A DNA stretch of 21,248 nucleotides. Origin: Candidatus Odinarchaeia archaeon. Its GTDB lineage: Archaea > Asgardarchaeota > Odinarchaeia > Odinarchaeales > Odinarchaeaceae. Shown one piece after another: positions 1,835 through 6,670 of the stretch. Where the stretch lies: the NCBI GenBank assembly GCA_029856525.1, contig JAHQXC010000015.1, positions 1 to 21,248 on the forward strand. Reading direction: 5' to 3'. The notes beneath the pieces were generated by a model, which saw nothing but the letters and a program-made list of their open reading frames with translations, had not been told where the DNA came from and searched no databases. How positions within the stretch are numbered: the stretch's first letter is position 1; each line of letters begins with the position of its first letter. The translations under genes were made by a program, and so were the position numbers.

Positions 1835-3517
1835 TTAGGCGGCTTCCTGTCTTAACTCAAGTATTTTTCTATCTATTCTCTGCGATAACTTCATTATTTT
1901 CTTTTCAAGCTCATCTTTTAATCTATTATATGTAGCCGCTGTTACACGTTTATTTAAGTATCTATTTCTTAAATCTTGTAATTGTCTCTGCGCTGTCTCC
2001 TTCTCTAATTCAAACTCCTCTATAGTAGTAACAGTTCTAGCATACGAGGAGCCTGCTCTACTTAAATCCTCTTTCAAAGGTTTTAACTCCCTGTCGACGC
2101 GTTCAAGCTCTGTAATATAAGCCGTCCTCCTTTTCTGATACTCTATTTTCCTAATCTTACCTTTCAAGTAGTCTACTTCTAATCGTTCAAGTCTTTCAGC
2201 TAAAGCTGTTTTATCCTCGTAGAGTTTACAGAACAGGCTGATTAATTCTTTAGGTTTCTCCTCTATTTTAACCTCTACAGGAGCCTCCTCTTCTCTACGT
2301 GTTTTAAGCCTCCAAGCTATGAAAGCTGTTAGCAGGATCCCTGTTACCGCGCTTATAAGAAGAGGCCTCCCTATAATATCAGCTAACCCTATCGTATAAG
2401 TGAACTCCACGATACCTGTATTATAAGAAGTAGCGTTCACTCTTGTAATAGTCAGCGTGTTCAAGGTTGCTTGAACATTATAGTCGGAGGGGGCTGTATA
2501 ACTGTTAATTATAGATGACTCTGAAAGCTTTATATTTAAAGAGTATTCTCTAGCCGTGTATTGAGGCGGAGATGTCTGAAGCCTTATACCGGTTGAAGTT
2601 TGACCGCGGTATGATTCAATCGGAAGCCAGTATTCTATAATAAATAAATAGCTTTGATTACTGTAAACCGTGTATCTGAAATTCACTGTTATTAAAGTTA
2701 TATTCCCGTCTGCAACCTGATTATATGTGAGGATACCCGTATAATCGTATACTTTAAAGTTTTGAGCGTAGGGTAGCGTCGCCACGGTAAACGTTGTTAT
2801 ACCTGAGGTGACACCGGTATTTAGTATTGTAAGATTATGTGTTTCAATTATTTTCAAACCAAGCCATGGATTAATTTCTAAACTTCTTTTAAACATATTA
2901 TACTCAGCTAAAGGCGTGCCGCTGTACGCGTATTCTATTTTAAGAGCAACGTAATTGTAAGCTGTGAGATTCGACGCTGTATAAGTGGAATAAGACGGTG
3001 TTGTTCTCACACCGGGAGTTGAAATTTTACCTGTCATATAAGTTATATTATATGGGAGTATAGGGTATCTCGGGATTGTGAGAGAATACTCGCCTACTCC
3101 TTTAGATAATATTATTCTCGTGTAAACCATTGTAACCGTTATGTTAACGGTTGAACTAGGCGTTAACGCGGATGGTAGTAGTATAGCATAGCCGGATATG
3201 TTACTGTTAATCGTGAACCTGTTTGAAACCTGTAGGCTTAAACCGTTATAAACAGCTCCAACATAGTTAATATAACTGTTAAAATCAGAGTAGACTCCTA
3301 TAACGACGTAATCGGTTGAAGTTGACCCGTTGTTAGCTACCAGCAGAGTGTCGTTCACCACCACCTGTCCATAAGTGTTTACGCTTATCTGACGGTTAGC
3401 GTTGATAACTGTAAGATAGTTCTGTGGAGTGTACGCTGCTTGCTGAGTGATATTGACAGGTATACTTATGAAGATGAATAAAACCGTTAGAGTGATTAGA
3501 TAAACATTTTTATTCAA
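1835..3517 (-). CDS. Ribophorin I (RPN1/OST1)-like type I membrane protein
   Basis: N-terminal signal peptide, two beta-rich luminal repeats, one TM helix (PLLISAVTGILLTAFIAW) and a C-terminal coiled-coil region. KRSLEINPWLGLKIIETH resembles the RPN1 R.IEVSHWGN...E motif, and LP...KVYDYTG resembles LP...YYRD.IG. Many N-x-S/T sequons. TTG start. Confidence 0.75.
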   Translation of the reverse strand: MNKNVYLITLTVLFIFISIPVNITQQAAYTPQNYLTVINANRQISVNTYGQVVVNDTLLVANNGSTSTDYVVIGVYSDFNSYINYVGAVYNGLSLQVSNRFTINSNISGYAILLPSALTPSSTVNITVTMVYTRIILSKGVGEYSLTIPRYPILPYNITYMTGKISTPGVRTTPSYSTYTASNLTAYNYVALKIEYAYSGTPLAEYNMFKRSLEINPWLGLKIIETHNLTILNTGVTSGITTFTVATLPYAQNFKVYDYTGILTYNQVADGNITLITVNFRYTVYSNQSYLFIIEYWLPIESYRGQTSTGIRLQTSPPQYTAREYSLNIKLSESSIINSYTAPSDYNVQATLNTLTITRVNATSYNTGIVEFTYTIGLADIIGRPLLISAVTGILLTAFIAWRLKTRREEEAPVEVKIEEKPKELISLFCKLYEDKTALAERLERLEVDYLKGKIRKIEYQKRRTAYITELERVDRELKPLKEDLSRAGSSYARTVTTIEEFELEKETAQRQLQDLRNRYLNKRVTAATYNRLKDELEKKIMKLSQRIDRKILELRQEAA

Positions 3518-3705: not shown

Positions 3706-5123
3706 ATGAAAGAATACCCTTATCTACCAAATGTACCTGATAAGATTAAGCGGATGATGTTAGATGAGATAGGCGTGAATTCGATAGAGCAGCTATACTC
3801 TGATATTCCAGCGGATATTCTTCTAAGAAGGAATCTGAATCTCCCTGAATCCAAGTCTGAGAGTGAAGTTTACCGTGAAACTGTTCGAATTCTAAGAAAA
3901 AACAGGGCTTTAGATTATTCTAAGATATTTGTAGGCGCAGGGGTTTGGCCTCATCTTATCCCCTCAATAGTCGGTGTTCTACTCAGCCGCGGGGAATTCC
4001 TGACCGCCTACACCCCATAGCTGTGTTTTAATAAACACGGCGGGGAGATCAAGCGGAAGCCTCTCAGGGAATTCTCCAAGCCTTCTACGAGTATCAGAGC
4101 ATGATGGCTGAGCTTTTAGAGATAGATGTTGTAAACGAGTCCATGTACGACTGGGCTTCAGCTTTAGGTGAAGCTGCTTTAATGTGTAATCGCCTTAATA
4201 AGAGGGGGAAGTTTCTAATACCTGAAATCATACACCCTGACCGTTACTCAACGCTTATATCCTATACTGATAGCGCTGGAATAGAAGTTGTTAAAGTTAA
4301 ATATGACCGGGATAGCGGTAAGCTTGATCTAGCCGATTTAAAATCGAAGATGAACGGTGATGTAACCGCTGTCTATGTTGAAAATCCAAGCTATCTCGGA
4401 GTCATAGAAGACCAGGTTGATGAAATTTCCAGTATTTGTAAAAGCAATGAATCACTGTTCGTGGTCGGCGTGGACCCTACCTCTCTTGGTATAATTAAAC
4501 CTCCTGGAGCTTATGGAGCTGATATTATTATAGGAGAAGGCCAGCCTTTCGGATCTCCTATCAACTATGGAGGTCCGCTGCTAGGGATCTTCGCGTGTAG
4601 AGACGACAAGAAAATGATCAGACAGCTACCAGGCCGCTTAATCGGTATGACTACTACAATAGAAGGCGGTGAGCGCGGTTATGTGATGACTTTAACCTCT
4701 AGAGAACAGCATATAAAAAGGGAGAAGGCTACATCTAATATATGCTCTAATGAAGGCTTGTTAACTGTTGCAGCTGCAATATACATGGCGGCTCTCGGTA
4801 AAAACGGGATTATTAAACTGAGCAAGAATATTTTCTATAATACACAGTATTTGATGAGAAGGCTTCAAGAAATTGAATCTATTACAAGCCCTGTTTTTAA
4901 CAGCGTTCACTTTAAAGAGTTTACAGTTAACATTGACAGGGTTAAATTATCTTGCTCTGAATTCCAGGGGAAATTGTTAGAGAAAGGGTTAATCTTCGGT
5001 AAATCCGTGGAGCGTGAGTATCCTGAGCTCGGTAAAACATTATTAGCCTGCACAACAGAGGTTCACTTAAAAGAGGATTTAGATTACCTGGCGAATAGTA
5101 TCCGCGAGGTGGTTGAAGCATGA
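3706..5123 (+). CDS. gcvPA: Glycine dehydrogenase (decarboxylating) subunit 1, intron-containing: join(3706..4018,4048..5123), 462 aa
   Basis: ATG at 3706 follows AAGGGTGA. Exon 1 ends ...[11 protein letters not shown] and exon 2 begins AT-CAA-GCG-GAA-GCC-TCT-CAG-GGA, so the join gives [27 protein letters not shown]. Downstream GcvPA motifs are intact (NESMYD, GEGQPFG, GGP.LG, LTSREQHIKREKATSNICSN). Spliced length is 1389 nt, or 463 codons. Confidence 0.93.
4019..4047 (+). other. Predicted 29-nt archaeal BHB intron within the gcvPA mRNA
   Basis: CCCC(4013-16), bulge AT|A(4017-19), 9-bp hairpin GCTGTGTTT-TAAT-AAACACGGC(4020-41), GGGG(4042-45), bulge AG|A(4046-48). Cleavage after the second nucleotide of each bulge reconstitutes TAT (Tyr) and the reading frame. 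Confidence 0.9.
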
Positions 5124-6670
5124 CGGGTAAAGATTTTTACAGGCAAGCGAAGTGGAGTGAACCCCTCATCTTCGAATTATCAAGTGAGGGTAGAGTAGGA
5201 TACCGGCTACCTGATCTTGACGAATCGATTGAGAGAGAGATCGGCGATTACAGAAAGATAATTCCAAGCAACATGATTCGAGATAATCCTCCGAGTTTAC
5301 CTGAAGTCTCAGAGGTTACAGTTATCCGGCATTTCACACGTTTATCTCAGATGAACTGGGGGGTTGACAGTGGAATATATCCTTTAGGAAGCTGTACTAT
5401 GAAGTATAATCCTAGGGTTAATGAAATTTTAACGAGTATGATGGAGTTAACTAACCTTCACCCATATCAGCCGGTTGAAACAGTTCAAGGGATTTTAGAA
5501 ATCTTATACAAGCTTCAAAAATGGCTTGCTGAGATAACGGGGACTGCAGCAGTCTCTCTTCAACCAGCTGCAGGCGCTCACGGAGAATTCTTAGGCGTAT
5601 TATTAATGAGAGCATACCACAAGTATAATGGTGAACTGGATAAGAGAAGAGAGATGATCATACCTGATTCAGCTCACGGAACCAACCCTGCTAGCGCTCG
5701 GATGGGCGGCTTCGATGTAGTGGTTGTTCCTTCAGATGAAAACGGATTAGTTGACATGGAGGCTTTAAAGAGTAGTGTATCTGAGAAAACCGCTGGTTTA
5801 ATGTTGACTAATCCGAATACACTTGGTTTATTCGAGAAGAATATAGTTGAAATAGCTAGAATCATCCATGAGGCTGGTGCTCTACTATACTATGACGGCG
5901 CTAATCTGAACCCTATTCTAGGTAAGGTTAGACCAGGAGACATGGGGTTTGACATAGTTCACATAAACACGCATAAAACGTTTTCAACACCTCACGGAGG
6001 CGGCGGTCCAGGCGCCGGTCCTGTAGCTGTCTGCGAGCGGCTTGCAGAATTTCTACCGGTTCCAATAGTAGACTACGATGGGTCTAAATACTATCTTAAC
6101 TATAATCTACCGCACTCTATCGGTAAAATAAAAGGTTTTTACGGTAATATAAGCGTGTTAGTGAGAGCCTACTGTTACATTCTCTCCATGGGATTCGACG
6201 GTTTAAAAGAGGCTGCTGAGTTATCTGTCTTAAACGCGAATTATATTAAAGCTAGGCTAGAGAAATTACGCGGGCTATCTCTTAAATACGCTCCTCAAAC
6301 ACCTAGAAAACATGAAGTAGTGTTCAGCGCTTCCCCTCTATTAAAGGAGACGGGGGTGGCGGCTTTAGACATAGCTAAAAACCTGCTTGATTCAGGTGTA
6401 CACGCTCCTACCAATTACTTTCCATTAATCGTAAGCGAGGCTTTAATGATAGAGCCTACTGAAACAGAGCCGAAGGAGGAGTTAGATAAATTCGTTGAAG
6501 GCTTGAAGAGAATCCTGGATGAGGCTTATTCGAATCCTGAAGCGGTTAAGAAGGCTCCTTTAAAAACATCTGTAACTAGACTGGATGAGGTTAAAGCAGC
6601 TCACCCTCAAACAATGGCTTTAACATACCGGATGTTTCTCAAATCCGCGGGTGTTAAAAGGGATGTTTGA
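5120..6670 (+). CDS. gcvPB: Glycine dehydrogenase (decarboxylating) subunit 2
   Basis: Motifs YPLGSCTMKYNP, QPAAGAHGE, PDSAHGTNPASA, MLTNPNTLGLFE, YYDGAN, and the PLP lysine motif HINTHKTFSTPHGGGGPG. ATGA overlap with gcvPA. Confidence 0.97.
   Translation: MTGKDFYRQAKWSEPLIFELSSEGRVGYRLPDLDESIEREIGDYRKIIPSNMIRDNPPSLPEVSEVTVIRHFTRLSQMNWGVDSGIYPLGSCTMKYNPRVNEILTSMMELTNLHPYQPVETVQGILEILYKLQKWLAEITGTAAVSLQPAAGAHGEFLGVLLMRAYHKYNGELDKRREMIIPDSAHGTNPASARMGGFDVVVVPSDENGLVDMEALKSSVSEKTAGLMLTNPNTLGLFEKNIVEIARIIHEAGALLYYDGANLNPILGKVRPGDMGFDIVHINTHKTFSTPHGGGGPGAGPVAVCERLAEFLPVPIVDYDGSKYYLNYNLPHSIGKIKGFYGNISVLVRAYCYILSMGFDGLKEAAELSVLNANYIKARLEKLRGLSLKYAPQTPRKHEVVFSASPLLKETGVAALDIAKNLLDSGVHAPTNYFPLIVSEALMIEPTETEPKEELDKFVEGLKRILDEAYSNPEAVKKAPLKTSVTRLDEVKAAHPQTMALTYRMFLKSAGVKRDV

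Follow-up and report, generated by a model that had tools for sequence, protein, structure and literature searches.

Interruption of the gcvPA reading frame

The locus raises the question of how a gcvPA gene whose reading frame ends at a stop codon and resumes in another frame could still give rise to its protein. The window (the whole stretch of DNA that was analysed, 21,248 nt) is one entire contig (C123) of a MAG of 1.32 Mb in 127 contigs. Its closest named records are two Candidatus Odinarchaeota MAGs (85-87% protein identity), in agreement with the Asgard host proposed in an earlier note on this DNA. The ORF beginning at ATG 3706 encodes 104 aa and then meets TAG 4018-4020, while a second open frame starts within a hairpin after the TAG and runs to TGA 5121-5123. 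In this second frame, which is not that of the first part, the gcvPA reading resumes at CAA 4050. We refer to the two parts of the gene as exons 1 and 2:

3706-5123, plus strand: gcvPA, interrupted by a 29-nt insert at 4019-4047
3706-4018, plus strand: gcvPA exon 1, 104 codons and the first base of a Tyr codon (NF001696 and PF02347 matches; dN/dS)
4048-5123, plus strand: gcvPA exon 2, the last two bases of the Tyr codon, 357 codons and the stop TGA 5121-5123 (NF001696; dN/dS)
5120-6670, plus strand: gcvPB (NF003346, 743 bits; ORF coordinates)

Both exons match the NF001696 profile (GcvPA, glycine dehydrogenase subunit 1), exon 1 over positions 2-101 (E 1e-30, 107 bits) and exon 2 over positions 103-446 (429.5 bits alone, with a cut-off of 364). 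Together they cover positions 2-446 of the 447 in the profile, above the equivalog cut-off, and Pfam GDC-P (PF02347) matches both pieces in the same manner. The sole NF001696 position absent between the exons is the Tyr codon that is split into T4018 on one side and A4048 and T4049 on the other. The exon 2 frame has no ATG, GTG or TTG before 4101. The genome contains no second, intron-less gcvPA; gcvPB is intact and lies directly downstream of gcvPA, and gcvT and a gcvH-like gene are present and intact.

The start codon of gcvPB overlaps the stop codon of gcvPA (ATGA, 5120-5123), an arrangement suggestive of translational coupling between the two P-protein subunits. Upstream of gcvPA lies a divergent ORF of 560 aa (1835-3517, minus strand). 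In one related lineage (L126) it is the ORF in the equivalent position that has a match to Pfam Ribophorin_I, an oligosaccharyltransferase subunit typical of eukaryotes. Rfam reported no family and ARAGORN no tRNA in the window.

A BHB motif and the predicted splice junction

The insert and its flanks fold into a BHB motif with the following elements:

4004-4009, plus strand: 5' strand of a distal exon-exon helix, paired with 4051-4056 in the folds, with C4008.A4052 mismatched here
4013-4016, plus strand: exon strand CCCC of the central 4-bp helix, within codons ACC CCA, paired with 4042-4045 in all folds
4017-4019, plus strand: 5' bulge AUA with a predicted cut at U4018/A4019, invariant in eight sequences
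4019-4047, plus strand: predicted 29-nt BHB intron (the only TPYQ-restoring deletion; present in a second assembly and in relatives)
4020-4041, plus strand: intron hairpin with a 9-bp stem (4020-4028/4033-4041) and a loop at 4029-4032 (fold; covariation)
4042-4045, plus strand: intron strand GGGG of the central helix (folds; relatives)
4046-4048, plus strand: 3' bulge AGA with a predicted cut at G4047/A4048; AGA, AUA or AAA in relatives

In RNAfold, the BHB is both the minimum-free-energy and the centroid structure of 4000-4062 (-23.5 kcal/mol, z = -3.9), and none of 200 shuffled sequences folds as stably. Three unpaired bases follow each central-helix strand on its 3' side, as expected for BHB geometry, in the minimum-free-energy fold and in eight of eight variants. 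Of the flanking helices that define the strict hBHBh' form, the one on the intron side is strong: its nine pairs include a single G.U, its loop is UAAU, and it stacks directly on GGGG. On the exon side, the 3' bulge is closed by A4012-U4049 alone, followed by a 2x1 internal loop and then an interrupted helix of 4-6 bp. A4012-U4049 is invariant among the aligned relatives, and the distal helix (CCGCUU/AAGCGG) is perfect in three of them, whereas in this genome it carries the C.A mismatch. Because of this weak exon-side closure, we regard the motif as a relaxed BHB and not as a textbook one, and its cleavage would therefore need an enzyme of broad specificity.

All deletions of 26, 29 and 32 nt with starts at 4005-4029 were tested, and only the removal of 4019-4047 (equivalently 4020-4048) gives TPYQ. 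Cuts after the second nucleotide of each bulge produce CCA-U/AU-CAA, restoring the frame and the motif; the predicted spliced junction, with 4018 joined to 4048, reads ACCCCAU followed by AUCAAGCG. In cbf5, cleavage takes place between the second and third bulge residues (PMC2738675), and this rule, applied to gcvPA, yields exactly the frame-restoring junction. The TAG straddles the predicted 5' splice site.

The earlier note had described the stop and the change of frame, a 29-nt extra stretch with CCCC/GGGG, bulges ATA and AGA and a 9-bp hairpin, and a cut after the second bulge nucleotide that restores TPYQ. The stop and the change of frame are as it said, its geometry is found in the minimum-free-energy fold, with the refinement that the motif is relaxed, and the cut proved to be unique among the deletions tested and renders the two NF001696 matches contiguous. 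It had also placed the TAG across the 5' splice site, with a fragment of about 104 aa from unspliced mRNA, which is the 104 aa that the reading frame gives. It had expected automated annotation to call the gene a pseudogene, and gene callers do break gcvPA into two ORFs, one of 104 aa and one of about 340 aa.

Distribution of the insert and covariation of its stem

The class Odinarchaeia is represented by seven species genomes, and the insert is present at the same codon in all five that carry gcvPA. A protein search with contig look-up added three further lineages with the insert, at 78% (L125), 71% (L126) and 60% (L127) identity. The eight intron variants thus occupy one site, are 28, 29 or 30 nt long and have largely unrelated hairpin sequences, and all of them splice to YTPYQAE under the BHB rule. 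Folding predicts the same BHB architecture in the five genomes. In the five-genome alignment, seven of the nine hairpin pairs have changed on both sides, and 92% of the cells are paired versus 38-47% when the partners are slid. None of 500 shuffles reached the observed covariation score; because the eight sequences are related, these covariation statistics overstate independence. In the L125 lineage the central helix is CUCC/GGAG, a synonymous ACC-to-ACU change in the exon being offset by GGGG-to-GGAG in the intron. The pairs of the distal helix (4004-4009/4051-4056) hardly vary and therefore lend no covariation support, and the central and exon helices are nearly invariant and partly coding, so that most of their conservation is uninformative about structure.

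Outside these lineages the insert is lacking in 23 other Asgard genomes in which the gcvPA match is full-length and in 78 of 80 metagenome loci; at the remaining two the junction motif was not found. All 80 metagenome gcvPA loci are 42-60% identical, and there is no new intron variant among them. The intact junction at the 23 Asgard and 78 metagenome loci reads Y-T-x-[YF]-Q, and the junction residue is Tyr in 101 of 102 intact loci and Phe in one (two loci with a 30-nt intron left out). On a maximum-likelihood protein tree with modest support (71/84), the intron label needs one change, consistent with the intron having been gained once, close to the base of Odinarchaeia. In protein databases, a protein search with cluster look-up returned only shortened products of 339-350 aa at identities of at least 66%, and no full-length form, a result that speaks neither for nor against splicing. 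Among sequencing runs, a search for the locus listed a single DNA run, probably the source, and none of RNA.

Purifying selection on both exons

Comparisons with congeners, with synonymous changes at or close to saturation, place both exons under purifying selection: dN/dS amounts to 0.13-0.17 in exon 1, to 0.05-0.08 in exon 2 and to 0.05-0.17 over the two. The 17 codons at 4050-4100, which extend from the 3' splice site to the first possible start at ATG 4101, have a dN of about 0 and a dS of 0.2-0.8. Conservation of these start-less codons means that ribosomes must arrive from upstream to translate them in this frame.

The splicing machinery encoded in the genome

The genome encodes two EndA paralogs, on contigs C56 and C61. 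The C56 protein (EndA alpha, 188 aa) gives a full-length alignment with the catalytic subunit from the heterotetramer of Aeropyrum pernix (3P1Z_B, E 6e-44) and retains the Tyr, His and Lys-bearing segments as well as the N-terminal loop region linked to broad specificity. The C61 protein (EndA beta) is without the catalytic His and also matches the structural subunits NEQ261 and PAE0789. Together the two would form an EndA of the alpha/beta heterotetramer type, presumably able to take relaxed motifs. Asgard archaea are reported to have an (alpha-beta)2 EndA with an L1 loop that is associated with relaxed-motif cleavage (PMC5829648). Many tRNA genes of this genome carry introns. The gene for the ligase was located as follows:

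L041:1-1311 on contig C95, minus strand: RtcB gene, with a LAGLIDADG intein after profile position 50, running off the contig end

RtcB is complete and uninterrupted in the congeners G001 and G002, and an intein-bearing copy is present in G005. Since the copy in this MAG has an intein and is truncated by the contig end, it is the congeners alone that show the ligase gene intact.

A model for gcvPA expression

Altogether, our results argue for a model whereby 4019-4047 is, in all likelihood, a genuine archaeal BHB intron inside the gcvPA coding sequence that is spliced from the mRNA. The earlier note had arrived at the same reading, which the recurrence of the insert at one site in eight sequences, the covarying stems, the purifying selection and the EndA and RtcB genes now support. 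In this model, the exon CCCC of the pre-mRNA would pair with the intron GGGG to form the 4-bp central helix, with the 9-bp intron hairpin stacked on top. EndA alpha/beta would cut at U4018/A4019 and G4047/A4048, after the second nucleotide of each bulge, and RtcB would ligate the exons to give ACC CCA UAU CAA, encoding TPYQ. The ligated mRNA would be translated into full-length GcvPA of 462 aa, and unspliced RNA would yield the 104-aa stub only. GcvPA is thus very probably made only after the mRNA has been cut and rejoined, and splicing may be needed for translation of gcvPB too, given the overlap of its start with the gcvPA stop. We infer the steps of EndA cleavage and RtcB ligation at the gcvPA sites, as well as any regulatory role that the splicing might have, from the sequence. 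Splicing activity may in this way control glycine cleavage, along the lines of the dependence that the earlier note had put forward.

Several other explanations have to be weighed against splicing. An assembly or sequencing artefact, for which nothing speaks beyond the source being a MAG, is vanishingly unlikely: the identical insert, at a depth of about 16, also appears in a contig that another assembler produced from the likely source run, and seven other assemblies from other samples have an insert at the same site. Ribosomal recoding without splicing, by a programmed frameshift or by hairpin bypassing as in phage T4 gene 60, might be suspected from the position of the stop right after CCA and at the foot of a stable hairpin, which superficially resembles a bypass take-off site. 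However, each frame is closed by stops, that of exon 1 at 4018-4020 and that of exon 2 by TAA TAA at 4029-4034, so that no single frameshift can connect the exons. Moreover, the intron has no CCN landing codon, and the DNA is without an intact UAU, so that bypassing could not yield the conserved Tyr. It would also have to proceed differently for inserts of 28, for those of 29 and for those of 30 nt, while one product follows from the BHB rule in eight of eight, and we therefore consider recoding very improbable.

That a small insertion has disrupted gcvPA and left it to decay as a pseudogene is also highly unlikely. The two ORFs reported by gene callers and the origin of the MAG from a small, streamlined genome would agree with decay, but dN/dS is low (0.05-0.17) on both sides of the insert, the insert has stayed at one site even between lineages whose proteins share only 59-60% identity, its stem pairing is preserved through compensatory changes, and gcvPB, gcvT and the gcvH-like gene are intact. 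A split gene, in which the 104-aa N-terminal polypeptide and a C-terminal polypeptide starting at ATG 4101 assemble non-covalently, would make use of the stop codon of exon 1 and of the available ATG. Such an arrangement is nonetheless quite improbable, as codons 4050-4100, beyond the reach of any start, are conserved in protein with many synonymous changes, the conserved Tyr codon would not exist, and the covarying BHB would be left without a reason. Finally, EndA cleavage could mainly destroy the message and act as a down-regulator, with ligation rare or absent; ligation is here a prediction from the sequence, and among the substrates of the Haloferax enzyme is a BHB in an mRNA 5' UTR (PMC7714728). 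Yet exact ligation at the BHB sites alone yields a functional protein, and strong purifying selection on the only gcvPA copy means that such a protein has to be produced; we give this explanation very little credence and retain mRNA splicing as our reading of the locus.

Other interrupted genes in the genome

The genome was scanned for BHB geometry that fuses two open frames, and candidates were kept if they were structurally strict and restored a conserved motif. Of the 3014 candidates from a loose scan, most simply joined neighbouring genes; a leuC/leuD-like pair on C95 was rejected for this reason. The scan recovered gcvPA and three further strong cases:

C23 3669-3697 (L128:1170-1198), minus strand: 29-nt BHB insert in gatA, with helix GCGG/CCGU, bulges UAA and AGG and a 9-bp hairpin
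C124 8175-8203 (L129:876-904), minus strand: 29-nt BHB insert in a radical SAM gene, splitting CxxxCxxC (FFSGCTFRCAY/CQNYDIS)
C27, position 2105 on the reverse complement, minus strand: 32-nt BHB insert in kae1, the removal of which restores SQGPG/LGPCLR

The gatA exons match TIGR00132 at positions 3-164 and 166-464, and their junction restores the amidase signature GSDTGG/SVRQPA; an insert with a covarying stem is found in gatA of four other Odinarchaeia genomes (G001, G002, G003 and G005). The radical SAM exons gave a sub-threshold match to Pfam Radical_SAM, in exon 2 only, and none in NCBIfam. The central helix of the kae1 insert is rich in G.U pairs. In this genome, cbf5 (L042, C91 23726-24682) has no interruption.

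The introns of gcvPA, gatA and the radical SAM gene are dissimilar in sequence but follow one layout (1 + 22 + 4 + 2 = 29 nt), and each splits a highly conserved motif.

With at least four interrupted protein genes in a 1.3-Mb genome, each split in a conserved motif, it is tempting to speculate that mRNA BHB splicing forms a systematic level of gene expression in Odinarchaeia and further Asgard archaea, and not an oddity of one gene. At present we hold this generalization to be unlikely, if well worth entertaining. If true, production of GcvPA, GatA, Kae1 and the radical SAM enzyme would be gated by EndA/RtcB activity, and these relatives of the eukaryotic ancestor would have to postpone translation or uncouple it from transcription.

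Implications and comparison with known systems

In open-access papers and bioRxiv we found no report of a gcvPA intron or of an Asgard mRNA BHB intron, as the earlier note had supposed for this host gene, and a 2026 preprint on Asgard tRNA introns makes no mention of mRNA introns. The gcvPA BHB intron thus appears undescribed in the open-access literature, in which the known archaeal cases are cbf5 and one 5' UTR. If our reading is correct, the tRNA-splicing machinery is required by a gene of central metabolism in an Asgard archaeon, as it probably is by at least three other genes in the same small genome, and the tRNA-splicing system would have mRNA clients in the closest prokaryotic relatives of eukaryotes. 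The locus also exposes a systematic annotation error, in that annotation turns such a gene into two ORFs or a pseudogene. It poses a testable question as well, by setting the presumed coupling of transcription and translation against ribosomes that terminate at the in-frame stop before the intron is removed. Finally, introns of 28-30 nt with known variants offer short natural BHB substrates for studying the specificity of Asgard EndA.

The nearest parallel among protein-coding genes is the cbf5 pre-mRNA intron of Crenarchaeota, on which Watanabe in 2002 and Yoshinari in 2006 reportedly worked. This intron occurs in Desulfurococcales and Sulfolobales, and by that account archaeal pre-mRNA splicing was confirmed for no gene other than cbf5 (Yokobori 2009, PMC2738675). 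Like the gcvPA intron, the cbf5 intron is short, lies inside the coding sequence and has a relaxed BHB, as most cbf5 introns do (PMC2738675). In both, the cut falls between the second and third bulge residues and is made by a hetero-oligomeric EndA, as predicted for gcvPA. Both introns split a codon in a highly conserved motif, are routinely mis-annotated as a frameshift and were gained in one lineage. The two differ in that the gcvPA host gene encodes a metabolic enzyme in an Asgard archaeon (Odinarchaeia), whereas cbf5 encodes an RNA-modification enzyme in a crenarchaeon; moreover, cbf5 splicing has been proven by cDNA and in vitro, whereas gcvPA splicing is predicted from sequence.

In Haloferax volcanii, the HVO_1309 mRNA has a BHB intron in its 5' UTR, with the cbf5 mRNA as the only other mRNA case reported by 2020 (PMC7714728). 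Here too an mRNA is the substrate of the tRNA splicing endonuclease, as we predict for gcvPA, but the intron lies in an untranslated leader so that no frame is rebuilt, and the enzyme is of the homodimeric euryarchaeal type. Archaeal tRNA introns, described at canonical and non-canonical positions with a BHB or relaxed BHB (Marck and Grosjean 2003, to the extent cited in PMC5829648), have the same motif geometry as the gcvPA intron and presumably the same enzymes. In contrast to these introns, that of gcvPA lies in a translated mRNA, so that splicing has to get ahead of the ribosomes or keep them away, and codons restrict the exon strand of its central helix.

A more distant analog is the unconventional mRNA splicing of HAC1/XBP1 in eukaryotes, in which Ire1 cleaves and, in animals, RtcB ligates; Tanaka 2011, on this subject, is among the references of PMC5829648. 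That system differs from gcvPA in that its nuclease Ire1 is not of the Sen/EndA family and its splicing is stress-regulated. Both systems, by our model of gcvPA, are protein-only and independent of the spliceosome and remove a short intron defined by RNA structure, and in both a change of frame gates the functional protein.
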